Shown one piece after another: positions 26,433 to 63,932 of a stretch of 64,000 nucleotides of DNA (its first letter is position 1; every line of letters begins with the position of its first letter). Position numbers and translations under genes: made by a program. Source of the DNA: a bacterium (GTDB lineage Bacteria; UBA10199; 2-02-FULL-50-16; JAJFLM01); assembly GCA_965216315.1 (NCBI GenBank), contig CBDCFN010000016.1, positions 544,001 through 608,000 of the forward strand, written 5' to 3'. The notes under the pieces were generated by a model. That model searched no databases. It had not been told where the DNA came from and saw only the letters and a list, made by a program, of their open reading frames with translations.

Positions 26433-26433
26433 T

Positions 26434-28801: not shown

Positions 28802-28950
28802 TGTCTAACGGGGGTTGACCCGAGCCGCCTACACGTGTTTTAAAGCTACGCAAGAATTATCACCTATCATTCAGAAGTGTCCTTTTCTCAGTATCCGCAA
28901 GATTTGCAAAAAGAGCCACCGCTGGAATTGAGCAAGGAAAAGGAAGCTTC

Positions 28951-30444: not shown

Positions 30445-30464
30445 CAACTTCGCTGCAATCACAT

Positions 30465-41284: not shown

Positions 41285-42001
41285 TTGCTGAGCTTAATAT
41301 TTGGACAAGGCCATCCCCCTGAAAAACGTAAGCGCTACCGGTATACCTTGCCGTCATCAGTGGCGGGTCGGGTTGAGTTGGAGTTGCCACTTGGTGAACG
41401 GCTAACGCTTCGGGTGGTCGATCTCAATGACGAGGCGGTATCCGGTCACTACGAGGGGGAACTCTCGATGCCGGTTGATGATTTGCCGCGGCTGAATGCG
41501 ACGCTGTATCTCGATGACTTGCAGTTTGCGTTTAAGGCGCAAATTATTCGTTATGCCAAAAATTTCCTCGTTTTTAAGTATTGTGATTATGATGAGGAGA
41601 CCTATAAGGAAGTCCTCGAATATTTCCCGGTGATATTAGGTCGGAGCTTGGAGGATCGCGGGGCGCAAAGTAAGACATCGGATTGGATACATGGTTCAAA
41701 TTATACCGATATTTTTATTCAGAACGAAGAAGACCGGAGTGGTGATATCCATAGTTTAACCTATGTTTCAGAGGATAACTATTTGCACTGGAACAGAGAA
41801 ACGGGCATGAAAACGGGGCAAGTTAAGCGAGAGACTTTTGCCGAAGGGTTAGGGTTTTCGAAGCGAGTGCAGAATCCGATTATAAAAGACGCTAGGCCTG
41901 ATGCGGGTCGAATAAAGCGCTTAGCAAGTATTGTTGCGCATTCCTCCTTGCCTGTAGAGACAAAGCAGGCCATTGCTGCAATTCTTGAGATTGGATCATG
42001 A
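41285..42001 (+). CDS. PilZ-like domain protein
   Basis: KRKRYR followed by VVDLN and beta-strands; degenerate DxSxxG. Confidence 0.5.
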   Translation: MLSLIFGQGHPPEKRKRYRYTLPSSVAGRVELELPLGERLTLRVVDLNDEAVSGHYEGELSMPVDDLPRLNATLYLDDLQFAFKAQIIRYAKNFLVFKYCDYDEETYKEVLEYFPVILGRSLEDRGAQSKTSDWIHGSNYTDIFIQNEEDRSGDIHSLTYVSEDNYLHWNRETGMKTGQVKRETFAEGLGFSKRVQNPIIKDARPDAGRIKRLASIVAHSSLPVETKQAIAAILEIGS

Positions 42002-44316: not shown

Positions 44317-44466
44317 GAGTCAATATCTTGACTGTTAGGGCTCTCAATATGATAAAAAATAGTGTAGACTAAGCGGAGCGAGTGTCATTTATTCATATAA
44401 AACAACAGCTTACTTTTTTTGGCTACTGGTACGTTTATTGCACTAGCTAGAATGGTGGATTCATTT

Positions 44467-45906
44467 ATGTCGGGCAGAAACATCAGCATTGGGGGGATTT
44501 TGCTTGCCGCCCTGTTGGTAGGGGCGCTTTCAGGGCCGGTGCAGGCGCAGCCGAGTGCCGCGGATGAGCCGACGGAAGCGCCAGCTCCACCAACGATGCC
44601 CCCGCCAACGACACCCCCACTGCCGCCCCTGCCGGACGATCCCGCCGATAGTTCGACGCCACCGCCTCCCGGCGAAACAGGGTCTGAGTTGCCCAGCGAC
44701 CCTCTCGGGGAGCCTGAGGTCGGTGAAGTGGAAGAGCCGGCCGTAAAGTATAAAGTGGGTTATATTTGCAGCCCGGCGGCAGGCAATGTTGAGAATCAAA
44801 GTAACCTTTGTGTCGTGGATTCCGATGGAAAAAATCCACGTGTCATGGTGGTGGGCGGCATCCTTGCCGCGCCGGTTTGGTCTTTAGATGGCCAGTTCAT
44901 CTATTTTTCTTATGATAAGGGTCCCGCCAATCTAGAAGCGTTACCGGGGATGCCTCCGGTCAGCATTCCCCATAATTTTGATGTTCATTATCTGCGTTGG
45001 AGTGATGGAGCGCATCTGCAATTAACGGATAGTCCTGCGCCCGAATTCTTGATTCAAGATCTTCCTGCCGGAAATGAATTGCTGTTGACACGTCGTCGTT
45101 TTGTAAACGAAACCTCACAGCTGGGAGTTGAGAAAAAGAAGCTGGAGATCAAATTAAAGCTAATAGATTTTCCGTGTGTTTTTTCCATGACTGAACAGAA
45201 TTGCGAGAGTTTAGGCGCAACGGCAGGGGAGTTAGCGAACTCTGATTGCCCACCCTTGGCGCTCCCATTGCCTCTAGGCTTGTCTCCATTTGGACGCTGG
45301 GCGACCCAATCGGCAATGTTGTGTGATGAAGGGGTAAGGAAGGAAGGCTTTTTTCTCGTTGATACTGAAAGTGATAAGAGGATTCCGGTTTTGCATAAGG
45401 ACCTTAGTGCATGTCGCGTTATAGATTTTCACGGCGGCATTGCCGTCAATGACGATGGATCGCCCATGGTGATTCCTTTTAATACGAAATCTCTTAAAAT
45501 AGATAGCTGTGTCTTCTACTTGTCCCCGGAAAGGCAACGCATGGCTTACATCAACGTTAACGGTCAAGTTGGTGTGATTGATTTGAATAGCCGTCAACTC
45601 CAGTACATGACAGTCGAGGCGCCGGTTCAAGGCATTGATGCGCTGGCGTGGTCACCCGGTGGCAATGATTTGTTGGCCTTCAAGCGGGAAGGCGGGGGGC
45701 CGATGTATAGAATTTCGGCGCTAATCGTCGACGATGTCAGTTTTCTGGGTTACGGGAGTCAACCTGCCTGGAGTCCGATTCCGCTCGCGACGTATACCTC
45801 CGAAGCGACGGTTGCAGCGGCCGAAACTATTGAGCTCGACAATGTTCCCGCCGAGAAGACGCAAATCATCGCGCAGCCTGCCGCTGGATGTACCCTCATC
45901 CGCTAA
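44467..45906 (+). CDS. Exported TolB/PD40-like beta-propeller protein with Pro-rich N-terminus
   Basis: Signal peptide ending VQA; PPPTTPPLPPLP; PVWSLDG, LAWSPGG, PAWSP; C-terminus AAGCTLIR. Track start is 44419. Confidence 0.7.
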   Translation: MSGRNISIGGILLAALLVGALSGPVQAQPSAADEPTEAPAPPTMPPPTTPPLPPLPDDPADSSTPPPPGETGSELPSDPLGEPEVGEVEEPAVKYKVGYICSPAAGNVENQSNLCVVDSDGKNPRVMVVGGILAAPVWSLDGQFIYFSYDKGPANLEALPGMPPVSIPHNFDVHYLRWSDGAHLQLTDSPAPEFLIQDLPAGNELLLTRRRFVNETSQLGVEKKKLEIKLKLIDFPCVFSMTEQNCESLGATAGELANSDCPPLALPLPLGLSPFGRWATQSAMLCDEGVRKEGFFLVDTESDKRIPVLHKDLSACRVIDFHGGIAVNDDGSPMVIPFNTKSLKIDSCVFYLSPERQRMAYINVNGQVGVIDLNSRQLQYMTVEAPVQGIDALAWSPGGNDLLAFKREGGGPMYRISALIVDDVSFLGYGSQPAWSPIPLATYTSEATVAAAETIELDNVPAEKTQIIAQPAAGCTLIR

Positions 45907-45981
45907 GCAACTGAAATCTTTCCCTTATTCATGTTTTCACAAGTGGCGAGCTGTGATATTGTGTAGCGACCAAACAGCGTT

Positions 45982-47715
45982 GTGAAATCACTTATTATCA
46001 TCATTATGTTGCTCGGCTTGGCGGTAGGTGCCAGTGCCGCTGAGGAAGAAACGGTCTCGGAGGAGATCCCCCCGAATTGGAAGAAGTGGGAGACTCCCGA
46101 CGGGGCGGTTTATTATCAGCGGCCCGATGGGACAACGACGTGGGAAAATCCACTCAATCCGCCCGAGCTAGGTCCGGGAGTTGATGACAAGCAGGGTCCC
46201 GTTCCAAGCCAAACTGTCAGTGATGACGGGGCGCCCGAACCAGTTGAGGCAGAGCCGGCTCCTGTTGAGGCAACAACCGTTGGTGCGCGGCAGCCGAGAA
46301 AGAGCGGGGCGTTTATGGAGGGAAGCGCCGAAGCGGCTCCTGAGGTATCGGTGTTACCGGATGGTTGGAAAGAGTGGCGCACCGAAGACGGCAAACGCTA
46401 CTACGAGAAGCCGGATGGAACGACGACATGGGACCGCCCCAAAATTGTCTGGGAAAAGCCCTCGGCAGACGGAACACTGACGCTCACGCGCTATCATACT
46501 GAAAACATTAATTGGGCAAATGATTTTCGCTTTGGGGGGTCGCTAGAATATCGATTTTCCGGGTTTTTTAAAAATGATGTGAATAGTGATGAGCGTCTCT
46601 GGAATGATGTCATTTTTCAATTGTTTACCGATGTTCGCTGGAATGATCAGGTTCGCACTTATGGCAAGATGGAGTTGACAGGATATCTCCCGCAATCGGA
46701 TCCGCGTATTCGTATTATTCCGGAAGAAGCTTTTCTGGATCTTTATTTAGGTCCCGTTGATATTCGGGCGGGTTATCAGATTTATTCCTGGGGTGTGGCT
46801 GATCTGTATAATCCGACGGATAAGCTGAACCCGCGTGATTATATAGACATTCTCAATTACGAAAAAGAAGGTATCTTAAGTTTGAAGGTCGGTTATTCTT
46901 TTAGCAATTGGACGCTCGAAGGCATTTGGATTCCTTTGCCGGAGGAGAGTTATCTCCCTCAACCCGGCTGGCGCTTTTTTGAAATGCCGGGCGCCTCCCA
47001 GGGACTGCCGCCGGCAATCGTGTCGGACCTAATAGCCTTGCGGCCCGGTAAAAGTATTCGAAATCCGCAGTTTGCAGCCCGCTTGCGAGGGACTGCGGGG
47101 CGTTTTGATCTGGGTTTCAGCTATTTCTATGGCTTGGCGACAGTGCCGCAGCGTGAGGTGAGTGTAGGCACATTCAACCCTGTCGATAATACGGTGACGG
47201 TAACAGTGACCGAAGTATTTCCACGCGAGCATACCGTTGGGGCGAACATGGCAACCACGATCAAAAAACTCGGACTCCATTTGGAAACGGCTGCTGTTTT
47301 TCCTAAGGATACCGGAAGAGACATCGGCTCCGCTGATCAATTTCGCTTTAACTATGTTGTCGGCGGGAATTATACGTGGAGCGATGTCATTTCAGACCAT
47401 GATATAAGATTTTTCCTCGATTTTACTCACGAGATTCATCGTGATGAAAAAAGCACTAACCTTTCCCGAATTTTTCAGTTATCATTGCTCTCACGTCTGG
47501 AATATATCGTCTCAGACGACCTTAAAATCACTCTATCAGGGGCCTATAATTTCGATGATCGCGATTATATTATTCGGCCTCGTATCGAGTGGGGTTTTTA
47601 TGAGGGCTTTACATTGACCGCCGGTGCCGATTTCCTGGGTGGGCCGAGCGGAAGCTTTTTTGACCTGTTTGAAGAGGATGACCGGGGCTATGCCTGGCTA
47701 AAGTACGAATTTTAG
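45982..47715 (+). CDS. Outer-membrane beta-barrel (DUF1302-like) with two N-terminal WW domains
   Basis: Signal peptide; two P..W......G..YY...DGTTTW..P units; GYQIYSWG..D..NPTD.LNP.D; terminal KYEF. Confidence 0.8.
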   Translation: MKSLIIIIMLLGLAVGASAAEEETVSEEIPPNWKKWETPDGAVYYQRPDGTTTWENPLNPPELGPGVDDKQGPVPSQTVSDDGAPEPVEAEPAPVEATTVGARQPRKSGAFMEGSAEAAPEVSVLPDGWKEWRTEDGKRYYEKPDGTTTWDRPKIVWEKPSADGTLTLTRYHTENINWANDFRFGGSLEYRFSGFFKNDVNSDERLWNDVIFQLFTDVRWNDQVRTYGKMELTGYLPQSDPRIRIIPEEAFLDLYLGPVDIRAGYQIYSWGVADLYNPTDKLNPRDYIDILNYEKEGILSLKVGYSFSNWTLEGIWIPLPEESYLPQPGWRFFEMPGASQGLPPAIVSDLIALRPGKSIRNPQFAARLRGTAGRFDLGFSYFYGLATVPQREVSVGTFNPVDNTVTVTVTEVFPREHTVGANMATTIKKLGLHLETAAVFPKDTGRDIGSADQFRFNYVVGGNYTWSDVISDHDIRFFLDFTHEIHRDEKSTNLSRIFQLSLLSRLEYIVSDDLKITLSGAYNFDDRDYIIRPRIEWGFYEGFTLTAGADFLGGPSGSFFDLFEEDDRGYAWLKYEF

Positions 47716-47721
47716 AGGATC

Positions 47722-47831
47722 AATGAAAATGACCACCTGCATCGTTGCCTCAAAATTCAGTCATTGCGACGTACTTAAAGTACGACTCATTCCTGAATTT
47801 ATCAGCGCCTTGCATCTGGAACATTTTCATT
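47722..47831. repeat. ~110-nt imperfect palindrome, copy 2
   Basis: Shares CCAxCTGCxTCGTTG...CGACGTAC...GTACG...GCCTTGCAxCTGG with 1144-1254; stems aatgaaaatg/cattttcatt and aaattcag/ctgaattt. Confidence 0.7.
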
Positions 47832-47864
47832 AATCCTTATACTGTGAATTGCAAGGAGAGTAGA

Positions 47865-48695
47865 ATGTATCGATATGTAGGTTATACCGGGATTATCACG
47901 TTCACGTTTCTGCTAATAGCGAGTAGCGGGCATGCACAAACGGCGAGCGAAGCGCCGGCGGGAACCGCTCAACCGACGGCTCCGGCTCAACCGCAGTTAA
48001 CGGCTCGCCAGATGATGCAGAAATTTGTCGATCATTATGATAATCGTGATGAGGCGACTAAGATGCAAATGGTGCTGATCTCCAAGACAGGTTCACAACG
48101 GAATCGACGCATGAGTATCAAACGTCGCACTGATGAAAAAGATCTTGAAAAGATAATGATCCGTTTCCATGAACCCAATGATATCCGCGGGACCTCTTTG
48201 CTGACTTGGGAACAGGCGGCTGGTAAGGATGATTTGCAATGGATTTATCTGCCGGCACTGAAAAAGACCAAGCAGATTTCAGGTGGCGCCAAAAAAGATG
48301 ATTTCGTCGGCAGTGACTTTACCTATGAGGATCTGCGCCCCGAAAAATTGGATGACTTTAATTACACGTTAGTCGGAGCTCAGGATGGCCGCGTCATTAT
48401 TGATGCAACGCCACGTATCAGTGATTCCGGTTATAGCCGCCGGCGCGTCTGGCTGCGGCAGGACAATTATTTTGCAGTGGGTATCAAGTATTACGACCAT
48501 AAAGGCCAATTCCTCAAAAAAATGAGCGTTTCGGGTTTGGTGAATGTCGCCGGTGGGCGCGTACGTGCCAATAAAGTGAGGATGGAAAACGTTCAAAATG
48601 GCCATGCGACTGAATTGAATGTCCATAGCCGTCAGTTAGACACGGGCTTGAAAGAAGCCGCGTTTACCAAGCGGGAATTGGAAAAGGGCGTCTAG
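47865..48695 (+). CDS. LolA-like periplasmic carrier (outer-membrane lipoprotein-sorting protein)
   Basis: AAGGAG RBS; F.EP.DIRGT.LL, QWIYLPALKK, FVGSDFTYEDL, FT.R.L. Confidence 0.85.
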   Translation: MYRYVGYTGIITFTFLLIASSGHAQTASEAPAGTAQPTAPAQPQLTARQMMQKFVDHYDNRDEATKMQMVLISKTGSQRNRRMSIKRRTDEKDLEKIMIRFHEPNDIRGTSLLTWEQAAGKDDLQWIYLPALKKTKQISGGAKKDDFVGSDFTYEDLRPEKLDDFNYTLVGAQDGRVIIDATPRISDSGYSRRRVWLRQDNYFAVGIKYYDHKGQFLKKMSVSGLVNVAGGRVRANKVRMENVQNGHATELNVHSRQLDTGLKEAAFTKRELEKGV

Positions 48696-48696
48696 T

Positions 48697-49866
48697 TCAA
48701 TCAGCGGTAAAGTAATTCTGACGACCGCGCGAGTAAAGCACTTCAGAGATCATATATTTCTGTATCTCGGTGGTTCCTTCAATAATAGAAAGGATTTTTG
48801 AATCGTTGACTAGCTTGGCGATTGGATACTCGAGGGAAATACCGGCTCCCCCCATAATTTGAGCTGCTTTTAGAGTGACTTCTTCGGCTGTTGATGTTGC
48901 ATAGGCTTTAGCCAGTGATGCCTCGTAGCGATAATCCTGGCCGAGAGAGGCTTTCCATGCCGCCCGCCAAGCTGCAAGTCTTGATGCCTCTGTCGCCATT
49001 TGCATTTGCGCAATGTATTGGCGAATGACCGGATGATCCCCAATGGCTTTTCCAGCCGAGTAACGAGTTCTTGAATAATCAATGCATTCATCAATGGCAC
49101 GTTGTTGTATGCCCGTAGCTATGGCAGCCGTTCCGGTCCTGCCACGCGAGAGAGAACGCATGGCTACCTGATAGCCGTTGCCCTCTTTGTCTAGAAGGTT
49201 TTCACGCGGGATGAAGACATCTTCAAAAGTGAGACCGGATGTATCGGCGGCTTTAAGGCCAAGCTTTTTTTCAGGGCGCGCTTTGATGACTCCATCCAGG
49301 TTGCCGGGAACGATAAAGGCTGATAGCTCAGAAATTTGTTGAGACCCCTTAGGGTAGGCGAAAACAATATAGATGCCGGCACGATTTGCATTGGATATCC
49401 ACGCTTTCTGACCATTGATGACAAAGCCATCATTCTTTGTTTCGTAATGGGTTTTTAAGCCGCCAAGGTCGGAGCCGGTTTGGGGCTCGGTTAAGGCAAA
49501 CGAAATCAGCATTCGCTCTTCACATAATAAGGTAAGCCACTTCTTTTTTTGTTCTGCCGTGCCGAAATAGTCAATAGGTGCGGAAGCCAGATTATTAGTC
49601 AGTATGGCGAGTGCTATACCTGCACAAGCATGTCCCAGGATTTCTGCAATAAGGACGGACTCAGCAGGTCCCATGTTACCTCCACCATACTCATCTGAAA
49701 TTCCCAAGTTAACGATACCTAACTCTTGAGCTTTATCGATAATATCTTCAGGAAAAGTATGGCTTTCATCATATTCTGCTGCTTTGGGTAGGATTTCGTT
49801 TGAGGCAAAATCTTTTGCCATATCCACGATCAAGCGCTGGTCTTCAGTCAAAGAAAAATCAATCAT
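48697..49866 (-). CDS. Acyl-CoA dehydrogenase family protein
   Basis: FALTEPQTGSD, INGQKAWISN, KLG, GGAG, IIEGTTEIQ; AGGAG 7 nt before ATG 49866. Confidence 0.9.
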   Translation of the reverse strand: MIDFSLTEDQRLIVDMAKDFASNEILPKAAEYDESHTFPEDIIDKAQELGIVNLGISDEYGGGNMGPAESVLIAEILGHACAGIALAILTNNLASAPIDYFGTAEQKKKWLTLLCEERMLISFALTEPQTGSDLGGLKTHYETKNDGFVINGQKAWISNANRAGIYIVFAYPKGSQQISELSAFIVPGNLDGVIKARPEKKLGLKAADTSGLTFEDVFIPRENLLDKEGNGYQVAMRSLSRGRTGTAAIATGIQQRAIDECIDYSRTRYSAGKAIGDHPVIRQYIAQMQMATEASRLAAWRAAWKASLGQDYRYEASLAKAYATSTAEEVTLKAAQIMGGAGISLEYPIAKLVNDSKILSIIEGTTEIQKYMISEVLYSRGRQNYFTAD

Positions 49867-52663
49867 AAACATGCTCCTTTTCGCCATCACTGCTGTGTTG
49901 TTTTAGGCGGCGCAGGGACATTCCCGGTGCAAGTCTCGGGGTGGCTCCCAGTCTAATAATTTCCTGCTCGATCAGAGATGTGATGAACTCATGCTTGGGT
50001 TTTCCATTCGGTGAATCGATATTTCTTGGCGATATAGGGCTCCCAAATATGATTTTAACTTTGGACGGACGGGGAATGTACTGGTCGCGATTGAGAACAT
50101 TAAAGCTGCCTTTAATATAGATAGGAATAATCGGAGAACCGGTTGCTTCGGCCAGAATGCCAACGCCATTCTTGAAACGATTTAGTTTTCCGTCCATTGA
50201 CGGTGTTCCTTCAGGATGAATGAATAAGATATTTCCTGAATCCAGGACTTTTTTACCTGCCTGGAGTGCGGGGAGAAAATTCCCTTCGCGATCAATTGGA
50301 ATCATCTGGGCCAACCAGGCAAACAGGCCACGGTCAAAGCGCTGCAGATGCTCTTTTTTTCCGATAACATAAAAAAACTTTCGAAGTTGTGGAGCCAGCT
50401 TGCACAGAACAAAAAGGGGGTCCATATAGCTTTCATGGTTTGAGGCTAAGATGAAAGGTGGTTTCGCCGGAAGGTGCTCTATACCATCGCATTCCAGTCG
50501 AAACATTATGCGACTGATAAGTGACAGAGTTGAAATGAACCGCTGACGAAAATGCCCGGTAGAATTGTTATCAAGATGGACCCGCTGCTTTATTTCGCGA
50601 TCGATTACGGGAGAGATGGATTGGTCTAGTACCTCGTTCCAACATGTGGAATTGTTATTATCCATGCCTCTCCTGTAGTCCCCTTTTGATAGATCTATTT
50701 CGTTTTGAGAGCAGAATTCATTGATAGCGATGATGCAATCCCGAATCGAACGCATTGAGTAGACAATATCTTTAGATACCGGCTGTCCGATGATTTCTTC
50801 GATATTCACCGCTAATTCCGCCATCGACAATGAGTCAAAACCGAGGTCCATAAATAGATGTGACTCCAGCTCAAATTGGATGGGTCCCCCTTTTACGCGA
50901 GCCACAGCTTCCTTAAGGAGTTTGCCTGCACCCGACGAGAGCAGCTTTTCGCCGGATATATTAATTTCGACATTCGTTTTCTGACCGTTTCGATCGATGA
51001 CATTCTGTCTCAGCTCAAATTTCTTGATTTTTCGAGTCGTGGTCCGGGGTAGGGACTGATACTGAATTTCATATCGGTTGATTCGGCACCAGCCGGGCAG
51101 CTGTTCAGATCTGTCGATAATTGTGTTCTTGATAATCATGTCAACGTCGTTCAAGCAGTTCGTCTTGAAGTAGCTCATATTGGGGACAATGATGGCGTAT
51201 ATTTCTTCCGCTTTTTCGCGAGTACTTTTCGGGACTCCGAAGACGGCGATCTCTTCAATGCAGTCGGATTCGAGATAAAATTCTTCTATTTCGTCGGGGA
51301 AAACATTTTTTCCGGAAGGAAGTACGATGACGTCTTTAGATCTTCCGCAGATACTGAGATAGTTCTCTTTATCTAGCGACCCAATATCTCCTGTCAGAAA
51401 ATAGCCATCGCTCGTAAAAGTCGAGCCGTTATTATTTAGTTGATAGTAGCCATTAAAAACAGGCGGACCCTTAACGGCAATTTCACCCGCGCCATTATCA
51501 TCGGGTGAAACGATTTTAACGGATATGCCGTTAAGTCTGCGTCCGACTGTGCCGGGACGAGCATGATGAGGAAAATTACAGAAAATCACCGGTGCTGTTT
51601 CAGTCAGGCCGTAGCCCTCGAATATGGGGAGTCCTAAAGTGTTGAAAGTACGGATCACGTCTTCGTCGAGCGCGGCAGCACCCGAAATGATACGACGAAT
51701 ATTCCCGCCCAGCGCATCATGGATTTTTTTAAAGAGGCATTTTTTTATTCCGTAGAGATGAGCACCGTTGTCGCTGATATATCGAGACGATTTCAGGGTA
51801 TGAAATATGAGCTGGGCCGAGTTTGGAGCAAAATTAATCTGCTCGACTATGCCTCTGTAGAGCTGATTGAGGATAGCTGGGACAAATATAAGCGTTGTAA
51901 GTCGGTTCTTTTGAATGCATTCTAATAGGTCGGCTTTATTCAGGCTGCTGAGGATGAAGATATCGGCACCAACTTCCAGCGAATTCAGTAGGCAAGCGGA
52001 AAACGAGTAGGCATGATTCAGAGGGAGTAGCATCAGTGTTTTATCATCTTCAGATAATCTCATATCGTGGGCAATCGAAAGCTGAGAGAGAAAATTAGTA
52101 TGCTTTAATAATACTCCCTTTGGGTTGGATGTCGTGCCCGAAGTATAAATGAGTGAAGCGCTGTTTTTAGGGGAGGATCGGATGACTTTGAAATCAGAGT
52201 CATGTCTTTCCTCGATCCAGGAAAAAGGAATGCATTTACGCAAGTAATTGATGTCGGCGTCGAGAACGACGTATTTGCTGACTTTTTCGTCAAGCTCAGG
52301 AGAGCGGATGTTGGGTAAGATATTCCGCTCAGTGAATAAAAGCCTGGCTTTAGAATTGCCGATGATATTATTGATTTCGTGTGCTGATAAGTGGGGATCA
52401 ATTGTCACAGCGCAGGCGCCGACATTGATAATGCCTATATATATTGCGATCCATTCAATTCGATTGGTGGACATGAGAGCGACATTTTCGCCCCTTCTGA
52501 CATTATGATTCGCTAAGAAACGGCCTACTTTAAGGCTCAATTCATATACTTCCCGAAAAGAACTCTCGGTGTGCTGAGCCGCGCCCTGATGGTGAATAGA
52601 GGATAAATTATCCACTGCTTTGGCTTGGAAAAAATCGGTGAGAGATTGGTAACTGGCTGCCAT
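49859..52663 (-). CDS. Fusion of long-chain acyl-AMP/CoA ligase, ACP and PlsC-type acyltransferase (Aas-like)
   Basis: YTSGTTSNPKG, GYGLTE, TGD; ACP LGFDSL; acyltransferase NHESYMD, HPEG. Confidence 0.88.
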   Translation of the reverse strand: MAASYQSLTDFFQAKAVDNLSSIHHQGAAQHTESSFREVYELSLKVGRFLANHNVRRGENVALMSTNRIEWIAIYIGIINVGACAVTIDPHLSAHEINNIIGNSKARLLFTERNILPNIRSPELDEKVSKYVVLDADINYLRKCIPFSWIEERHDSDFKVIRSSPKNSASLIYTSGTTSNPKGVLLKHTNFLSQLSIAHDMRLSEDDKTLMLLPLNHAYSFSACLLNSLEVGADIFILSSLNKADLLECIQKNRLTTLIFVPAILNQLYRGIVEQINFAPNSAQLIFHTLKSSRYISDNGAHLYGIKKCLFKKIHDALGGNIRRIISGAAALDEDVIRTFNTLGLPIFEGYGLTETAPVIFCNFPHHARPGTVGRRLNGISVKIVSPDDNGAGEIAVKGPPVFNGYYQLNNNGSTFTSDGYFLTGDIGSLDKENYLSICGRSKDVIVLPSGKNVFPDEIEEFYLESDCIEEIAVFGVPKSTREKAEEIYAIIVPNMSYFKTNCLNDVDMIIKNTIIDRSEQLPGWCRINRYEIQYQSLPRTTTRKIKKFELRQNVIDRNGQKTNVEINISGEKLLSSGAGKLLKEAVARVKGGPIQFELESHLFMDLGFDSLSMAELAVNIEEIIGQPVSKDIVYSMRSIRDCIIAINEFCSQNEIDLSKGDYRRGMDNNNSTCWNEVLDQSISPVIDREIKQRVHLDNNSTGHFRQRFISTLSLISRIMFRLECDGIEHLPAKPPFILASNHESYMDPLFVLCKLAPQLRKFFYVIGKKEHLQRFDRGLFAWLAQMIPIDREGNFLPALQAGKKVLDSGNILFIHPEGTPSMDGKLNRFKNGVGILAEATGSPIIPIYIKGSFNVLNRDQYIPRPSKVKIIFGSPISPRNIDSPNGKPKHEFITSLIEQEIIRLGATPRLAPGMSLRRLKQHSSDGEKEHVYD

Positions 52664-52764
52664 TTAACCTACAGGTGATTCAATTTCAGCAAAAATAATA
52701 TCTATGCTCATGATAACAGAAGCTCATAATTGCATGTTAGATTATTTGTATGCACCGGATTAAA

Positions 52765-52786
52765 ACTGTTTACTCGTGTAAACAGT
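52765..52786. promoter_or_regulatory. Perfect inverted repeat (operator/UAS candidate) between divergent lipid operons
   Basis: ACTGTTTAC-TCGT-GTAAACAGT; half-site ACTGTTTAC again at 52923. Confidence 0.55.
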
Positions 52787-52943
52787 GTCATTATCTCTAC
52801 ATAGAGTGGGTACATGATGACCTCAAGACTGAGATGTAAATTGTATCCAACCGAATTGCGTTAACAGTTTTTGAGCAAACAATATTTTATTAACCAGCTG
52901 AAAAATAATGAAGATGCCTTTAACTGTTTACATGAATTGCGCT

Positions 52944-52960
52944 TAGGCATGTAATTTGCA
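52944..52960 (+). promoter_or_regulatory. Sigma54 (-24/-12) promoter of the NRPS operon
   Basis: TAGGCATGTAATTTGCA (GG-N10-GC) about 60 nt before GTG 53021. Confidence 0.6.
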
Positions 52961-53020
52961 GTTCAGCCTCTCAGATTATTTTTTGTTTATGATAATCCAG
53001 GTTAAGAGGAGACGCAGATA

Positions 53021-56000
53021 GTGGTTCTAAAGAAGTGGGAAGAAAGTTTATGCACGCTCCTCAAAAAGAAAGCACAAGAGCAGCAGGACGAAATAGCATT
53101 CACCTATATAAAGAATGACGGATCAGGCGCTGAAGAGATGACATACGCGGAGCTTGATGAAGGGGCCCGCGCAATCGCAGCCTATCTTGCCCCGATGAAC
53201 GTTATCGGGAAGCCGATCGTCACCCTTCAAATTAATAGTTTAGAGGCTATTTACGCCGTATTTGGGATTCTTTATGCGGGTGGGATTGCCGTGCCGGCTT
53301 ATCCGCCGGACCCGGCGCGAATCAGCCATACGCTGCCTCAATTGCTGTCAACTATCAGCGACAGCCAAGCAAAACTCATCCTGACCTCAACGTTCCTTCT
53401 GGAAGCAGCCGGCCCATTGCTCGAGGCGATGCCTGAGCTGAAAGCACTCCAATGGGTCGCAGTCGATGAGATTGTCGGGCAGACCCACAGCGATAACGAG
53501 CTTCCTCTCACCCAGCCGGAGACGGTGGCATTTATTCATTATACGTCGGGCTCGACGGGAGAGCCTAAGGGCGTTGTGACGACGCATAAGAATCAGATAC
53601 GGGCGACCCGAGGAATGGTGGAAGTCAATGACTACGATAAAGATACTGTCGTCCTCTCTTGGTTGCCGCTGCAGCATAGTGCCGGGTTTATGGCAAGCGT
53701 ATTGACTCCTATTATGTCGGGTGGAAGGGGTGTCATCATGTCGCCGTTGATGGCGCTTGAGGATCCCAAAAAATGGTTGCAAGCAATCTCGCAATACAAG
53801 GCCAATGTTAGCGGTGGCCCGAACTTCATTTTTGATCTTTGTGTGAAAAAAGTAAGTGATCAGGACATAGACCAGTTGGATTTACGTTCATGGCATCACG
53901 CCATCGTGGCAACAGAAGTCGTGCGTTCCGAGACACTCCGTGCCTTTGCTTCAAAGTTTGCATCATGTGGCTTCGAGGAGGGTTCATTCGACCCTAGCTA
54001 TGGACTAACGGAAATGCCGTTGGTGACGCTGAATGGCATGGCTGATATCGAGACCCGCATTGATTCTGGAATTGTCAGTTGTGGAAGACCGGCCCCTGGA
54101 GTTGAGCTGGAGATAGTGAACCCGGAAACGATGACGATCTGTAAGGCCGGAGAAGTAGGTGAAATATGGATCGGCGGTCCATCACTGGCTCAAGGGTATT
54201 GGAAAAAGCCAGATGAAACGGACCTGCTGTTTAAATCGTTTACAAAGGATACACTGAGAGGCCCATTTTTTAAGACAGGTGATTTAGGCTATCTGTCGGA
54301 AGACGAGCTATTTATTACGGGTCGGATCAAAGAGTTGATCATCATCCGAGGAAAAAATCACTATCCAATCGATATCGAACGGAGTCTTCAAGAGAACATA
54401 CCGGAATGTGGCGCTGGTTGTATTGCAGCATTCGGAATGGAAGCAAGTGGAGCTGAACAGCTCGTGATTGTTCAAGAGATATCCTCGAGTATGTCTAAAA
54501 AAGATCAGCTTGAATTGATTCAATCGATTAGAGAGGTCACGGGCCGTGAACACCAAGTAACTCCCAATGAAATCGGTTTGGTGGCATTGGGGAGTATTCC
54601 GCGAACGAGAAATGGCAAGGTTCAGAGAACTCTATGTAAGCAGCAATATATTTCAAACGAATTGGAACTTATCCATGATTCATCCGATGGGAGTGAGTTT
54701 GAGCAACGGCAGCCGAATACGTTTGTAGCCCCTCAAAGCGCGTGGGAAAAAGTGTTAGAGGAAATGTGGCGCACATCGCTCAGTCCGGATCAGGATTCAA
54801 TAGGAATACATGATAATTTCTTTCAGCTGGGTGGCGATAGCTTGAGCGCCATATCGATTGTGGGAGACTTATCGCGACTAACAGGCCGTATTCTTGATGA
54901 GAATTTAGTCCATCTTCACCCGACAATTCAAGACCTGGCGGCCCATTTGGAAACGTTGATCGGTGAAGTGCCAGCGGATGATGATGTAGCCGCGAGAGAT
55001 GAAACGTACAGGCAGCATATTAGATCGGACCAGTCAGAGTTTCCGCTCGAACCGCTTCAACAGTCTTTCTACATCAATAATATGTTGGGAGATGTTCTCT
55101 GCTATGTCTGCGGAGACCTGCGCCTTAAAAGTGAACTTAAACCCGAGGAGTTCCAACGTGTCATTCGTGAGGCGATGGAAATCATGCATTACCGTCATCC
55201 GACGCTCCGCTTGGCCTACCGCTTGGATGACGATGGGCCACGTCAGTACATTAAGGAGGACTATCCCGAGTTTACCGTTAACTGTATAGACCTCTCTAGT
55301 TACTCTTTAAGCGATGTTGAAAGAGGCATTAAAATCGAGTTTGAACGGTTGAACTGTTATCAATTCGATACGGAAGCGGGTGAAAACTTCGTTGCAACAC
55401 TTCTTTATACGGGGAGTGAAAATTACCGCCTGATATTCAGTATAAACCATCTCGGCATTGATGGTTTCAGCTTACCTTTCTTTTTCGACGACTTTCTGGG
55501 TGAGGTGTTTCCTTCTGTTCTTGCACGAGAACCCGTGGAAAGAATTCCACAGACCAGTATGAGCTTTAAGGATTATTTAGAAATCAAATTTGCACTTAAA
55601 GACAATGATAAAAGGCAATATGATATTGATTTCTGGTTGCAAAAATTGGAGCGTCTCGAGGCATTTCCTCCTCTGCCTGAAAATCACGAAAAAACAGCTG
55701 ATATATCTTTTGGCATGCACTGGCTGGATGTTGACCGGTTAATAGTGGAGAAACTGAGTCATATTGCTCGGATGCATGAGACAACATTGTTTTCCCTTCT
55801 GTTTGCAACGTTCTTCAAGTTAGTGGCCCAGTGGAGTTTGGTTGGAAATATTTCGGTTAATACGCCGATCGTCAATCGGCGGCCCTATGCGAAGGATGTG
55901 AATAATATATTGGGTTGTTTTACGGACATCCTGCCTGTGCACGTTGAAGAGGCTCTGAGCAAGCCGGTCATTGAGCTAGCAAAAGATATTCAAGGACAGT

Positions 56001-57973
56001 TGGCTGAAATACTCTCACATAGTTCCGTTTCCGCTGTCGAAATCGCTCGCATGCTCATGCAACGAGACAAGCAGAAGATGACCGCCTTAAGTCCAATTAT
56101 TTTCACTTCGGCACTTTTACCCGATTATGGGCTGAATGGTAAAGAAACCTTCGACGAAGTTGAGCTCATGCAAGTAAGAACAGGGGCACCAGCTACCTGG
56201 ATGGATGTCATTGTGGGGAGCCAACAAGAAGGAATATTTTTCTCTTGGAATTACAATCGGCGTCGATTCACTCAAGAATGGGTTGAGATTTTTTCTGATC
56301 AATATAGCGTGGCTTTGCAAGAGATTGCTACTAATCCTCAGACGTGCCGACCCATTAAATCATTAAAGACAGAACGTGACGATGAAGCCTATGCGCGTCT
56401 TAATCAAACAGAACGTTCTTATGGGAATCCAAAAACTCTCCATGAGAGGTTTGAGGTTCAGGTTGAGAAAAATCCCGATGCAACTGCAATCAAGCATAAT
56501 GACCATGACATGACATATGCTCAATTGAATATGCGCGCGAATCAGTATGCGCATACGTTACTCGAAAAGGGAGCTACCTGCGGTGATTTTGTCGCGATTT
56601 TGTCAGATCGGTCCAGTGAGTTTGTGGCTGGCATTCTTGGAATACTCAAAATAGGAGCCGCCTATGTCCCTATTGATCCAGGTTATCCTGATAAACGGCA
56701 GCAGTATATTCTGAGGGATTCTGAGGCCAAGGTTTTATTGATTGAGTCGAAGTATCATAAATTAAGTGATGAGTGGGTTGCGGACTGCCGCCAACTTAAT
56801 CATGTTATTAGCTTGGACGATATATCTCTGTCTGGTTCAACTCATGATCCTCAAATTAATGTCGATTCAAAAGTAATTGCCTACATGATCTACACTTCGG
56901 GATCTACGGGCGATCCTAAGGGTGTGATGATTTCTCATTGTGCAGTCGATAATCGTCTTCAATGGATGCAAGAGATATTTGAGATTAGTGGACACGACAC
57001 GATCGCTCAAAAAACTTCTCAGAGTTTCGATGTCTCAGTATGGGAATTATTTTGGCCCTTGCAGCAGGGGAGTCGAATGCTGATTATTGATTCGGAAGCG
57101 ATCATGGACCCTTTCCTTTTTCAATCAATAATCAATAAGGGGGAAGTCTCTGTCATGCATTTTGTGCCCTCGATGTTCATGGTATTTCTAGAGGTAGCCG
57201 AAAGCATGAGTGAGATAGAGCGCGCTATGCCCTGCTTGAGATGGGTCGTTGCCAGTGGGGAAGCACTGCCGGCGGAGGCTGTTCGCCGCTGGCAGCGGCT
57301 CTATCCACAAATTCCAGTGGCTAATTTATATGGCCCTACTGAAGCCGCGATTGATGTGACGTATCAGATTGTTAGCGAGGCACTTCCTGATGATGCGACA
57401 CAAATTCCTATTGGTCGACCCGTCGCCAACACTCAGATTCTGATTCTGGATAAGGAAGGGCATGTGCAGCCAGCAGAAGTGCCAGGCGAGATCTGTCTTG
57501 GGGGGGTGCAGTTGGCGGAGGGTTATTGGCATAAGCCAGAGCTGAGTGCTGAGAAGTTTATCGATAACCCTGATGAGTCGACGCGCAAGAGTATTCCTCG
57601 TTTGTACCGCACAGGTGATTTGGGCGTATTAGATGGTGGAGGGGTCATTCAATATTTAGGTCGACTCGATCATCAGGTGAAAGTACGAGGCTTTCGTATT
57701 GAGCTCGGCGAGATAGAAGCGGCATTACTGCGCCATCCTGCTGTGAGCGAAGCTGCTGTCGTCGCTCAAGACGGAAAAAATGGTCAGAAACGACTGGTTG
57801 CCTTTGTGAAACCATCTAATGGATCGATTTCTTCCGAGGAATTGAAATCATTTATTGCTCAGTCGTTACCAGAATATATGGTCCCGTCATTTATCAATTC
57901 AATTGAAGCAATGCCACATAATTCAAATGGAAAAATTGATCGGAAAAATTTAATCAGCCTTGACTGTCGCTAG
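53021..57973 (+). CDS. NRPS: FAAL-ACP-condensation (Cy-like)-adenylation (Ser predicted), no terminal carrier
   Basis: FAAL YTSGSTGEPKG, SWLP, IIRGKNHYP; ACP LGGDSL; C/Cy NHLGIDG, PIIFTS; A domain FDVSVWE, HFVPSM, ASGEAL, NLYGPTEAAIDV, NGKIDR. Confidence 0.9.
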   Translation: MVLKKWEESLCTLLKKKAQEQQDEIAFTYIKNDGSGAEEMTYAELDEGARAIAAYLAPMNVIGKPIVTLQINSLEAIYAVFGILYAGGIAVPAYPPDPARISHTLPQLLSTISDSQAKLILTSTFLLEAAGPLLEAMPELKALQWVAVDEIVGQTHSDNELPLTQPETVAFIHYTSGSTGEPKGVVTTHKNQIRATRGMVEVNDYDKDTVVLSWLPLQHSAGFMASVLTPIMSGGRGVIMSPLMALEDPKKWLQAISQYKANVSGGPNFIFDLCVKKVSDQDIDQLDLRSWHHAIVATEVVRSETLRAFASKFASCGFEEGSFDPSYGLTEMPLVTLNGMADIETRIDSGIVSCGRPAPGVELEIVNPETMTICKAGEVGEIWIGGPSLAQGYWKKPDETDLLFKSFTKDTLRGPFFKTGDLGYLSEDELFITGRIKELIIIRGKNHYPIDIERSLQENIPECGAGCIAAFGMEASGAEQLVIVQEISSSMSKKDQLELIQSIREVTGREHQVTPNEIGLVALGSIPRTRNGKVQRTLCKQQYISNELELIHDSSDGSEFEQRQPNTFVAPQSAWEKVLEEMWRTSLSPDQDSIGIHDNFFQLGGDSLSAISIVGDLSRLTGRILDENLVHLHPTIQDLAAHLETLIGEVPADDDVAARDETYRQHIRSDQSEFPLEPLQQSFYINNMLGDVLCYVCGDLRLKSELKPEEFQRVIREAMEIMHYRHPTLRLAYRLDDDGPRQYIKEDYPEFTVNCIDLSSYSLSDVERGIKIEFERLNCYQFDTEAGENFVATLLYTGSENYRLIFSINHLGIDGFSLPFFFDDFLGEVFPSVLAREPVERIPQTSMSFKDYLEIKFALKDNDKRQYDIDFWLQKLERLEAFPPLPENHEKTADISFGMHWLDVDRLIVEKLSHIARMHETTLFSLLFATFFKLVAQWSLVGNISVNTPIVNRRPYAKDVNNILGCFTDILPVHVEEALSKPVIELAKDIQGQLAEILSHSSVSAVEIARMLMQRDKQKMTALSPIIFTSALLPDYGLNGKETFDEVELMQVRTGAPATWMDVIVGSQQEGIFFSWNYNRRRFTQEWVEIFSDQYSVALQEIATNPQTCRPIKSLKTERDDEAYARLNQTERSYGNPKTLHERFEVQVEKNPDATAIKHNDHDMTYAQLNMRANQYAHTLLEKGATCGDFVAILSDRSSEFVAGILGILKIGAAYVPIDPGYPDKRQQYILRDSEAKVLLIESKYHKLSDEWVADCRQLNHVISLDDISLSGSTHDPQINVDSKVIAYMIYTSGSTGDPKGVMISHCAVDNRLQWMQEIFEISGHDTIAQKTSQSFDVSVWELFWPLQQGSRMLIIDSEAIMDPFLFQSIINKGEVSVMHFVPSMFMVFLEVAESMSEIERAMPCLRWVVASGEALPAEAVRRWQRLYPQIPVANLYGPTEAAIDVTYQIVSEALPDDATQIPIGRPVANTQILILDKEGHVQPAEVPGEICLGGVQLAEGYWHKPELSAEKFIDNPDESTRKSIPRLYRTGDLGVLDGGGVIQYLGRLDHQVKVRGFRIELGEIEAALLRHPAVSEAAVVAQDGKNGQKRLVAFVKPSNGSISSEELKSFIAQSLPEYMVPSFINSIEAMPHNSNGKIDRKNLISLDCR

Positions 57974-57982
57974 GAGGTCTCA

Positions 57983-59476
57983 ATGGATTCAATTCAACAG
58001 CAGTTATCAGATATACTCACTTCAATTCTTGATGTTGAGGAAGTAGATCCACGAGAAGAATTAACAAGCCTAGGCATTACGTCGATTGATTTAATGCGTT
58101 TAGCGGCTCGGCTGGAGAAAAATTTTGGTTTTCGCCCGCAAGTTAACGAGTTTATGAAGCTGACATCGATAGAGAAATTAGCCGAATTCTATCAATCGCA
58201 TATAGATACTGTTGAGAGCATAAATGCTCAAGCGTTAAACTGTGCTGAGGCTTCAAGGATAGAGTTTGCATTTAACCGCGATGATCCGAATGATATTCGC
58301 CAGGATATTCGCTTGCATGAGGCCATTAAGCCAGCGGCGGCAACTCATTCAGTCACTGGAAGTCCAACAAATCTATTTGTGACAGGGGCAACAGGATTTT
58401 TAGGCGCACATGTTCTCCATAGCCTGCTGCAAGAGACTCAGGCAACCATTAGCTGTCTGGTTCGGGCAGAGAATTCCGATCAGGGGATGAAGCGGATCTT
58501 GAAAAACCTCGAGTACTATAAGCTCTGGGATGACAGTTATTCAGAACGGGTTAAGCCGGTGGTCGGGGATATATCGCAGCCCTTATTGGGTCTTAGCGTG
58601 AAAGATTTCCATCGGGTAGCTTCTGAGGCTCAAGCTCTCTATCACATCGGGGCAGTCGTTAATTTTGTTCATTCTTACGACATGCTCAAAGAAACTAATG
58701 TGGACGGGACGATTGAAATGCTTCGCTTGGCTTGTGCTGATAAGCAGGCACCTCTTTATTATGTTTCGACTTATGGAGTTTTCAATTCTCCTGAATACCT
58801 TAAATATAAAATCATTGATGAATCCACTTCTACGGATCACTGGGAATTATTGGCTAATGGATATGAGCAAAGTAAATGGGTTTCGGAAAAAATATTAGCC
58901 ATTGCCAAGGAAAGAGGGATTCCCGTGACAATATTCCGACCGGGTACTATTGCAGGTGATAGTCGAAACGGCATATTTAATTCAAAAAATGATATTTTAT
59001 CATTGATGATCCGCGGGAGTCTGCAGATGAAACTTGTTCCCAAGATTGATATGGATGTGGACTTAACTCCAGTTGACTATATAAGCAAGGCACTTACAGT
59101 AATTTCATTACAACCTGATGTAGAGGGAAAAACATATCATTTGGTGAATCCCCAATCGGTTTCCTATGGTGATTTCGTGAAGTGGATCCGGAACTACGGC
59201 TATGATTTTGAGGAAACATCGTATCAAGAGTGGCGCCAAGCATTATTGAAAGTAGATCGGAGCAATGCGTTATTCCCATTGCTCTCATTATTTGAAGCAA
59301 TGGAGACGTCAGACCGATTCAGTATTCCTTATATGCGGTCAGATGAAACACTCCGCGCATTAAAAGACAGTAAGTTAACATGTCCAGCGCCTGAGAATCG
59401 ACTTCTGCAGACCTATTTTTCCCGCTTTATTAAGGAGGGATTTTTGGATGTTCCTGAGAGACGTGAAATCCATTAG
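57983..59476 (+). CDS. Stand-alone carrier protein plus thioester reductase (T-R)
   Basis: LGITSI phosphopantetheine Ser; VTGATGFLG, YEQSKW, FRPG; own GGAGG RBS. Confidence 0.88.
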   Translation: MDSIQQQLSDILTSILDVEEVDPREELTSLGITSIDLMRLAARLEKNFGFRPQVNEFMKLTSIEKLAEFYQSHIDTVESINAQALNCAEASRIEFAFNRDDPNDIRQDIRLHEAIKPAAATHSVTGSPTNLFVTGATGFLGAHVLHSLLQETQATISCLVRAENSDQGMKRILKNLEYYKLWDDSYSERVKPVVGDISQPLLGLSVKDFHRVASEAQALYHIGAVVNFVHSYDMLKETNVDGTIEMLRLACADKQAPLYYVSTYGVFNSPEYLKYKIIDESTSTDHWELLANGYEQSKWVSEKILAIAKERGIPVTIFRPGTIAGDSRNGIFNSKNDILSLMIRGSLQMKLVPKIDMDVDLTPVDYISKALTVISLQPDVEGKTYHLVNPQSVSYGDFVKWIRNYGYDFEETSYQEWRQALLKVDRSNALFPLLSLFEAMETSDRFSIPYMRSDETLRALKDSKLTCPAPENRLLQTYFSRFIKEGFLDVPERREIH

Positions 59477-59487
59477 AAGGTGAATTT

Positions 59488-60639
59488 ATGAATACTCCAA
59501 GTGCCTACCATTCCTATTTTAATCAGGCTCATGATGTTGTCCGCAAGCGTGTGCGTAACTTCATTGATAGTGAGGTGAAACCCTATATCGATGAATGGGA
59601 AGAGAATGAGCAGATTCCTAGAGAACTCCATTATCGTGCAGCTGAGCTAGGAATATTGGGGATAGGTTTCCCTGATTCATGTGGCGGGCTCTCGGGGGAT
59701 GTATTTTTTCAAGTTGCGGCAAATGAAGAGATAGCACGTGCTGGATCATGTGGGTTGTCTGCCAGCCTAGCTTCTCATGCGTTGGCATTACCTCCTATAG
59801 TTAGGGATGGAACAGATGAACAGAAAGAAAAATTTGTGAAACCAGTTTTATTGGGAAAGAAAATAGCTGCAGTCGCGATTTCAGAGACTGAACGAGGCTC
59901 AGATGTTGCAAACATAACGACGACCGCTGTGCGTGATGGAGATTTCTATATCGTTAACGGGAAGAAAGATTTCGTTACTTGTGGAGGACGTGCAGACCAA
60001 ATAACTTGTGCAGTTCGGACTGGAGGTGAAGGTGCTCATGGAATCAGTCTTTTAGTTATCGAAGCTGGCACTCCTGGATATTCTGTGAAGCGGGGACGCA
60101 AATTCATGGGTTGGTGGTCTGCTGAAATTGTAGAAATCGAACTGAAAGACTGTCGTGTTCCCATCTCCAATCGAATCGGGAATGAAAATGAAGGCTTTTA
60201 TAGTATTATGGCTAATTTCCAGATGGAAAGACTCCACTTGTCAGTCATTGCTAATACAAGTTCTCAGGTAGCCTATGAGGAAGCTATGGCATACTCAAAG
60301 GAGCGAGAAGTCTTTGGCAAGGAGATATTTAATTATCAGGTTACGCAGCACAAACTCGTGGATATGCTAACTCTATTGGAAGCAACTAAGGCGTTTACTT
60401 ATCAAGTTGCTGCTAAAATTGGAGCGGGAATAGATCAGACGAAAGAAATAGCAATGGTTAAAAACTTTGCTTGTGACGCTAGTAATAAGATTATCTATGA
60501 TGCTGTTCAGCTTTTCGGAGGTAAAGGTTATGTGCGTGGATACGTAGTCGAGAGACTCTTTCGTGATAATCGTGCGCTTGCGATTGGAGGCGGGACGTCA
60601 GAGATCATGAAGGAGATCGTTGCTAAGTTCATGCTTTAA
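59488..60639 (+). CDS. Acyl-CoA dehydrogenase family protein
   Basis: AISETERGSDVA, VNGKKDF, ERL, GGKGY, IGGGTSEIM. Confidence 0.9.
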   Translation: MNTPSAYHSYFNQAHDVVRKRVRNFIDSEVKPYIDEWEENEQIPRELHYRAAELGILGIGFPDSCGGLSGDVFFQVAANEEIARAGSCGLSASLASHALALPPIVRDGTDEQKEKFVKPVLLGKKIAAVAISETERGSDVANITTTAVRDGDFYIVNGKKDFVTCGGRADQITCAVRTGGEGAHGISLLVIEAGTPGYSVKRGRKFMGWWSAEIVEIELKDCRVPISNRIGNENEGFYSIMANFQMERLHLSVIANTSSQVAYEEAMAYSKEREVFGKEIFNYQVTQHKLVDMLTLLEATKAFTYQVAAKIGAGIDQTKEIAMVKNFACDASNKIIYDAVQLFGGKGYVRGYVVERLFRDNRALAIGGGTSEIMKEIVAKFML

Positions 60640-63188: not shown

Positions 63189-63932
63189 TTAATGTTTATA
63201 TTGCCAAAATTTTAAGCAGGTCACTTCATGTTGTGCGGCGATAGCGGCGATGGTTCCGGGGTCAGGCTGGAAGGAATGGAGACTCCAAGGGATTTGGTTT
63301 AGCTTAGTTGATTGGAACTCGATACGGCATTGCTGTTCACTGGGGTGACCGGAAACGGAGAATTCCTGAAGCTTCGGTTTTCCGCTCAGTCCACCACCAC
63401 ATGCCTTGAGTACGGCTTCTTTGCGGGTCCAGAGACTCAAAAAGGTGGCATGCTTGAGCTGATCGGAGGCTTCGGCATATTCGGCATACTCTGTTGCAGT
63501 GAAATTGCGGCGGGCGATCATGTTGTCTTCGTTCCTTCTTGAAAGGCACTCAACATCAACGCCTAGCGAGCGATCTCTTCCTATTGCGATTAATCCGATA
63601 CGTTGTGAATGTGACATGTTAAATTCATAACTGATGGACCCATAGGGTCGCTTCAACGCCGGTTTGTCAAACTCGCCGTAAGTAAACTCAAATTGGGTTG
63701 GAGAACAATTTGTATAGTATGATAAAATCAGGCGAAGTGCGTTATGTGCATTTGTATAGCGACGCTCTAATTCGGCCGTAGCAAATTTAGCTGCTTGTTC
63801 TTGTTCCTTAGGAGAAAGGAAGTTTTTTCCTGGTGATGAGTCAAGATCAATTTTCCAGATATGAATCGTATCAGAAGATTCTATAGTTAGTCTTTTAGGT
63901 GGTTCCAGCCACTGCGTGTTAACGTTTGTCAT
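63189..63932 (-). CDS. Sfp-type 4'-phosphopantetheinyl transferase
   Basis: KP.L, FNMSHS, LGVDVE, WTRKEAVLKA.G.GL. Confidence 0.92.
   Translation of the reverse strand: MTNVNTQWLEPPKRLTIESSDTIHIWKIDLDSSPGKNFLSPKEQEQAAKFATAELERRYTNAHNALRLILSYYTNCSPTQFEFTYGEFDKPALKRPYGSISYEFNMSHSQRIGLIAIGRDRSLGVDVECLSRRNEDNMIARRNFTATEYAEYAEASDQLKHATFLSLWTRKEAVLKACGGGLSGKPKLQEFSVSGHPSEQQCRIEFQSTKLNQIPWSLHSFQPDPGTIAAIAAQHEVTCLKFWQYKH

Follow-up and report, generated by a model that had tools for sequence, protein, structure and literature searches.

Does the domain predicted to join an acyl chain to serine in a small bacterial assembly line form an amide only, or does it also close that amide into a ring? The question is raised by a window of 64,000 nucleotides (contig CBDCFN010000016.1 of assembly GCA_965216315.1, positions 544,001 to 608,000), in which three genes at 53021-60639 encode a nonribosomal peptide synthetase (NRPS) line. 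An earlier note on this DNA read the line as one FAAL (ligase forming fatty acyl-AMP), an acyl carrier protein (ACP), a condensation (C) domain and a serine adenylation (A) domain, followed by a separate carrier-reductase (T-R) protein and an acyl-CoA dehydrogenase, and predicted an N-acyl-serinol or serinal as its product. That first reading is partly right. The joining domain is not a plain C domain: judged by its sequence it resembles the heterocyclization (Cy) domains, and it belongs to a family, here called Cy*, that is the main point of interest at this locus. The three genes and the parts of the joining domain are as follows.

53021..57973, + strand: NRPS of 1650 amino acids (aa), FAAL - ACP - Cy* (His-bearing, Cy-related) - A(Ser), with a carrier-less C-terminus (open reading frame (ORF) and domain searches)
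57983..59476, + strand: free T-R protein, 497 aa (PP-binding at 7-69 plus thioester reductase)
59488..60639, + strand: acyl-CoA dehydrogenase, 383 aa, long-chain/isovaleryl type (domain search, motifs)
55031..56344, + strand: Cy* domain, aa 671-1108, condensation superfamily, sister to canonical heterocyclization domains (Protein Data Bank (PDB) matches, trees)
55445..55465, + strand: core motif N809-H810-L-G-I-D814-G815, intermediate between HHxxxDG and DxxxxD (alignment)
56105..56206, + strand: positions of the Cy cyclodehydration dyad, T1029 (PIIFTS) and D1062 (TGAPATWMD), aligned to PIVFTS and RTPQVYLD of BmdB

Excerpts of four papers (PMC1894796, PMC10212144, PMC11546977, PMC10510592) give DxxxxD as the defining motif of Cy domains and HHxxxDG as that of C domains. 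The window domain reads NHLGIDG: the second His, the Asp and the Gly of HHxxxDG are present, and the first His is Asn. With the condensation His retained, this is not the His-free DxxxxD core of canonical Cy domains. The dyad T1029/D1062 is in place and matches that of BmdB; a Thr-Asp dyad is named in the available text of PMC9547227 as required for cyclodehydration.

When residues 664-1120 were compared with the PDB, Cy entries took the top seven of 30 places (BmdB three times, EpoB, PchE, and HMWP2 twice; E 2e-22 to 1e-16), above the first His-type C domain (E 7e-15). Cy domains also rank first against an AlphaFold model of the domain (pLDDT 74, four sequences), with C domains within about 1.5 Z and the solved RzmA, AmbE and McyA domains below the best Cy domains by small margins. 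The best matches in sequence and fold are NRPS Cy domains (BmdB Cy2, 5t3e; EpoB Cy, 5t7z; PchE Cy, 7emy; HMWP2 Cy, 7jtj), which share with Cy* the Thr-Asp dyad, the NxxxxNR, GxFT and PxxFTS layout, and the pairing with a beta-hydroxy amino acid and an oxidase. They differ in that identity is ~20-23%, that Cy* has N/D-H-x-x-x-D-G in place of DxxxxD and has lost the second-shell Tyr, Phe, Thr and Gln, and that it lies outside their clade. His-type C domains (LCL, DCL and starter C) have in common with Cy* the His at the catalytic position, the Asp-Gly, and the starter role of joining acyl-ACP to the first amino acid. In Cy*, however, the first His is Asn or Asp and the Cy dyad is present; His-type matches are E 7e-15 or worse, and these domains are separated from Cy* plus Cy at 100/98. 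We set aside an ordinary starter C domain as an improbable identity for Cy*. The condensation domain of the earlier note is Cy-like and not a plain C domain.

The Cy* family comprises 21 domains, with scores of 308-742 bits against a profile made from four of their own sequences; near copies are included, and 13 domains are left after dereplication. Its edge is sharp, as the next score after 308 bits is 171, from a canonical Cy domain. Members with a named host come from Ca. Moduliflexus (L006), Ca. Vecturithrix (L007, L008) and a gammaproteobacterial metagenome-assembled genome (L009). Position 809 is Asp in 12 members and Asn in 9, His810 is kept in 20/21, Asp814 and the dyad Asp are kept in 21/21, and position 1029 is always Ser or Thr (18 Ser, 3 Thr). 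The sole member without the His is P0208 (NCMALDG), where a carrier domain, not an A domain, comes next. In Cy domains a helix-1 Arg pairs with the first Asp; that position holds Arg or Lys in 11/11 full-length Asp809 members compared with 3/9 Asn809 members. At position 810, His is outside the four most frequent residues of 43 canonical Cy domains, but conservation of the reference groups at positions 809-815 and 1029 is partly circular because those groups were assigned by motif patterns. The dyad Asp lies outside the patterns: it is found in 43/43 canonical Cy domains, and in 45 His-type C domains it does not rank within the top four residues.

Two trees bear on where the family belongs. 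The larger has 116 rows, made up of 13 Cy*, 43 of 47 Cy, 45 of 638 His-type and 15 of 60 unclassed domains, with solved Cy sequences left out. There Cy* forms a clade (99) outside the clade of 43 Cy domains (100), and Cy plus Cy* splits from the rest at 96. The same three branches appear in a 43-row tree with 16 Cy domains, at 100/99, 100/100 and 100/98, so that Cy* falls outside the Cy clade with either sample. P0003 adjoins the window domain. On these alignments Cy* appears to be a family sister to the sampled Cy domains and outside all of them.

The uncharacterised lines P0003, P0206, P0209 and L006-L009 carry the same domain family at 32-43% identity, mostly as FAAL-ACP-Cy*-A(Ser). They differ from the window in having a fused carrier and a full FAAL insertion, and P0003 and L009 also have an oxidase; L006 continues with C-A-T-R, and L007 and L008 with polyketide synthase (PKS) and NRPS genes. 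Most Moduliflexus/Vecturithrix-type members (L006-L008; P0004-P0006, P0198-P0205) have half of a second condensation domain between Cy* and the serine A domain, which suggests that Cy* was perhaps grafted onto an older module.

Two features of these lines point to ring closure. The first is the amino acid that follows. Among the 21 members the A domain after Cy* is serine-like in 18 and threonine-like in 1 and absent in 2, giving Ser/Thr in 19/19 that have one; after His-type C domains, Ser, Thr or Cys is found in 78 of 431 assignable cases. The second is the oxidase. In a set of 366 proteins picked with the Cy* profile, 14 contain 21 oxidase matches; the preceding domain is a Cy for 19 of these and a Cy* for 2, and for none is it a His-type C domain. 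P0003 is FAAL-ACP-Cy*-A(Ser)-Ox-T, a single module whose A domain holds the oxidase as an insertion.

The amino acid and the release step of the window line are predicted from its remaining domains.

56450..57955, + strand: adenylation domain, code DVWHVSLIDK (Ser) (pocket residues, PDB matches)

All ten pocket residues reread as the earlier note gave them (D-V-W-H-V-S-L-I-D-K) and agree with the serine code DVWHxSLxDK. The top five PDB matches to the pocket region are 8xjz, FscH, EntF, Txo2 and Txo1; the Txo1 and Txo2 entries are titled serine modules, and EntF is a serine enzyme. The T-R protein has the carrier motif GITS (Ser34) and the Rossmann motif and Thr-Tyr-Lys triad of a reductase (TGATGFLG, T263, Y294xxxK298), and scores 343 bits on the thioester reductase model TIGR01746 (cut-off 213). 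Its R domain is closest among solved structures to that of the myxalamid reductase MxaA (PDB 4u7w, E 1e-88), which releases an amino alcohol. By this resemblance an alcohol end seems the likelier one. The window T-R is a free protein fed with acyl from a FAAL, whereas in the MxaA system the acyl comes from a PKS. The dehydrogenase, of a common long-chain type, contains FQMERL (Glu247), with GGGT at the other site. Relatives at 44-49% identity occur in 15 of 92 other genomes of the phylum, none of which has Cy*. Such dehydrogenases desaturate acyl chains in lipopeptide clusters, and by analogy the same is plausible here.

Several observations weigh against ring closure. The Cy second-shell residues are replaced across Cy*: Tyr (43/43 Cy) by Phe683, Thr (40/43) by Pro949 and Phe (41/43) by Val951. 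The TPQ loop has become APA and the helper Gln Ile. According to excerpts of PMC9547227, mutation of the second-shell Phe severely lowers cyclodehydration; the helper Gln is also absent from BmdB. The retained His is enough for amide formation alone. Only 2/21 members (P0003, L009) have an oxidase, and that of L009, lying between two modules, may act for the second of them. The Ser/Thr pairing does not amount to 19 independent events because the members are kin, and the profile-based choice of the 366 proteins counts in the same direction. A tree that constrains Cy* to group with LCL/DCL-type domains survives the test (p-AU 0.10), Cy and C are told apart only weakly by the fold model (Z 32.1 vs 30.7), and no MbtH was found in the genome.

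On balance we give ring closure by Cy*, as predicted from these residues and relationships, an even chance or slightly better. An oxazoline comes out somewhat ahead of a plain amide, given the Cy relationship of the joining domain and its retained cyclodehydration dyad; because several second-shell residues are lost, N-acyl-serinol stays the main rival. The full pathway, in which acyl and serine are joined, the ring is closed and the product leaves reductively as a 2-alkyl-oxazoline alcohol or aldehyde, we rate at about evens. Its steps would be these. A phosphopantetheinyl transferase (PPTase) would prime both carriers. The FAAL, whose domain identity is clear, would adenylate an acid and load Ser607 of the fused ACP, and the A domain, with its serine code, would load serine onto the free T-R protein. 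Cy* would then make the amide through His810 and cyclodehydrate it through T1029/D1062. The R domain, which has the motifs for it, would use NAD(P)H to release a 4-methanol or an aldehyde, the alcohol being suggested by likeness to MxaA. Finally, and this is the weakest step, the dehydrogenase may desaturate the acyl chain. A broader proposal is more tentative, and we hold it at somewhat below evens: that Cy* is an undescribed subtype with an amide-forming His and a Thr/Ser-Asp dyad, a branch like a surviving intermediate between C and Cy, dedicated to starting lipo-oxazolines, and that the window cluster is its minimal form, making a free 2-alkyl-oxazoline-4-methanol.

The strongest alternative, a serious one although clearly less probable than ring closure, is that Cy* is a His-type catalyst of Cy-like ancestry that forms the amide only, with release of an N-acyl-serinol or N-acyl-serinal. 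His810-x-x-x-Asp814-Gly815 in 20/21 members, a C-like Pro949, the lost Cy Tyr, Phe, Thr and Gln positions and a cluster in which the domain search found no oxidase all favour it, but it gives no account of a dyad Asp that never varies, of pairing with Ser/Thr alone or of the oxidase within the single module of P0003. Hydrolysis of an oxazoline ring would also yield N-acyl-serinol. The columbamide (col) cluster reportedly combines a FAAL-ACP with a serine module and reductive release. Acyl-serinols are known natural products: serinolamide A and the columbamides, like the product predicted by this alternative, have a fatty acyl chain on a serinol residue (excerpts of PMC5706043), and the col cluster opens with FAAL and ACP, beside which CylC-type halogenases are a feature (excerpts of PMC7923214). 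Among the ORFs scanned at 41-64 kb of the window there is no halogenase, methyltransferase or PKS gene. Of the product named in the earlier note, the acyl starter, the serine and the reductive release are supported, while the plain amide is doubtful, as the joining domain is Cy-related and has the dyad.

The loading domain departs from other FAALs, and an improbable alternative turns on it.

53021..54676, + strand: FAAL-type loading domain, aa 1-552, HSAG instead of HDMG, adenylation Lys533 present (best PDB matches FAAL-type, E 3e-112)
54011..54082, + strand: junction without FAAL-specific insertion, E331..C354 (alignment; no indel in contigs of two samples)
54755..54949, + strand: acyl carrier domain, GGDSL, Ser607 (PF00550, E 1e-10)

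In this reading the FAAL, changed as it is, would accept a short or non-fatty acid or produce acyl-CoA as well, or else serine would be dehydrated or O-acylated by Cy*, and another small product would result. In this FAAL the insertion is missing, with 24 aa at E331..C354 where 25 other FAALs have 42-48, so that the domain is 22 residues shorter. It has HSAG where 116/119 related FAALs have HDMG, has ATEV for GAEP, and sits on a long branch (1.09). In excerpts of PMC8460268, smaller pocket residues and insertion loss let FAALs make acyl-CoA, and the EcFAAL pocket Met M231 is Ala221 in the window; the lost insertion and this change may loosen the exclusion of coenzyme A (CoA). The same excerpts report that insertion loss gave only weak CoA activity, and that smaller pocket residues brought a gain of it. 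Moreover, W214, P216, F269 and the FAAL helix 242-248 are kept at EcFAAL spacing (W224, P226, F279 and 252-258, placed from motifs and spacing), the ACP is part of the same chain, and shortened insertions occur in other FAALs too (3 of 117 measurable related FAALs, and L042). The window FAAL groups with those of P0002, P0003 and a FAAL-ACP-R protein of another genome of the phylum, G020 (support 93). That protein, L032/L042 (G020:C33:43290-49415), is a single chain without the insertion and is likely a fatty aldehyde or alcohol synthase. A further locus, L031 (G053:C72:1-3385), read by eye, joins the end of a FAAL, an ACP and an R domain to an old-yellow-enzyme-like domain. Chain length cannot be read from FAAL phylogeny (available text of PMC12820801).

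The line itself is real and intact. Pfam and NCBIfam confirm the three ORFs and their order, with two AMP-binding domains, PP-binding at 579-643 and Condensation at 671-1108 in the NRPS. The T-R gene starts 9 nt past the NRPS stop, which an AGGAGG ribosome site overlaps, and the dehydrogenase gene 11 nt further downstream of T-R; with this spacing and this site a single transcript is likely. A comparison with assembled contigs covered four runs from two samples, all within a single study. From run X1, a contig that may be from the source of the window spans 52700-60700 with zero differences, and contigs of the second sample cover the FAAL deletion and the stop between both NRPS genes without indels; four single-base differences are confined to run X4. 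On this basis we rejected an assembly artefact for both the deletion and the split. A decaying remnant, in which a stop codon has split a fused NRPS and nothing is made, is very unlikely: the in-frame A/T stop (TAG GAG GTC TCA ATG), the carrier motif GITS rather than GxDS, the missing MbtH and the divergent FAAL speak for it, but the ribosome site overlaps that stop, all catalytic motifs are intact, a PPTase gene is adjacent, the solved PCP-R 6vtj also has a TS carrier motif, and the contigs of two samples contain no frameshift.

A search for relatives of Cy* among 1.84 billion proteins returned mostly long multi-domain NRPSs, with P0093 as the sole new member among 150 matches listed. Metagenome contig scans confirmed no relative (149 pattern matches with the family profile, 47 with the single domain). 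A plasmid tblastn (482 records) gave ~27% identity at best and no close member among the 10 matches listed, and 16 of 20 genome loci from the domain search show just 20-25% identity. Six motif strings gave no Cy*-like match in supplements 1-14 of PMC10212144, a weak test on gapped alignments. We found no paper describing a His-bearing Cy relative in the literature on Cy/C motifs and FAAL-oxazoline lines, a coverage with few subscription papers and without MIBiG, and the novelty of the family is provisional.

What the product does for its host is approached through the genome and the neighbouring genes.

63189..63932, - strand: Sfp/HetI-type PPTase (domain search; tblastn)
49859-52663, - strand: acyl-CoA ligase - ACP - PlsC acyltransferase fusion, divergently oriented to the NRPS with 357 bp between them (domain search)
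48697-49890, - strand: second acyl-CoA dehydrogenase (domain search)
41998..48695, + strand: MMPL/RND transporter, beta-propeller protein, DUF1302 outer-membrane protein and LolA-like protein (domain search)

In this 2.96 Mb genome (98% complete) the line is the sole NRPS found, with one condensation-type domain by tblastn. The PPTase lies 2.5 kb away and has no second tblastn match of its type. Between them, on the - strand at 60629-63097, is a Ser/Thr kinase that also matches TPR and PAS weakly and overlaps the dehydrogenase stop by 11 nt. Linked by position alone, the genes at 48697..52663 and 41998..48695 could modify or export the product. Two MMPL transporters (34143-36461 and 41998-48695, +), 42% identical, flank a sigma-54 two-component pair, one of them with the DUF1302 and LolA-like genes. 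Scans for promoters and terminators gave counts near those expected by chance (29 vs 24.9 and 18 vs 13.9).

The earlier note also saw a ceramide mimic acting as a membrane lipid, and this we find unsupported. A serine-palmitoyltransferase-like gene does lie at 26434-27672 (469 bits, below the 640 cut-off); at 25539-31283 it has its own neighbours and a sterol-desaturase-like (OlsE-like) gene. It is separate from the cluster and serves as context, giving no support for a ceramide-mimic role. Cy* was found in one of 93 genomes of the phylum (63 of high quality), the only other matches being weak ones in G014, and the GC content of the cluster is 0.453 compared with 0.509 for the contig, within the lowest 3% of 8-kb bins. 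Because of this rarity and low GC the line fits an acquired accessory pathway. We reject a core membrane-lipid role and predict a small lipid of accessory function.

Cy domains are defined by loss of the C-domain His, and their origin and two-step catalysis are only partly understood (excerpts of PMC9547227). A natural family with both the His and the dyad would allow each step to be switched off by one mutation in a two-protein system. Annotation by motif takes Cy* for an ordinary C domain, and recognizing the family would correct product predictions. If Cy* cyclizes, the line is a compact route to an oxazoline on a fatty chain; otherwise the line remains of interest as a minimal synthase of N-acyl-serinol.

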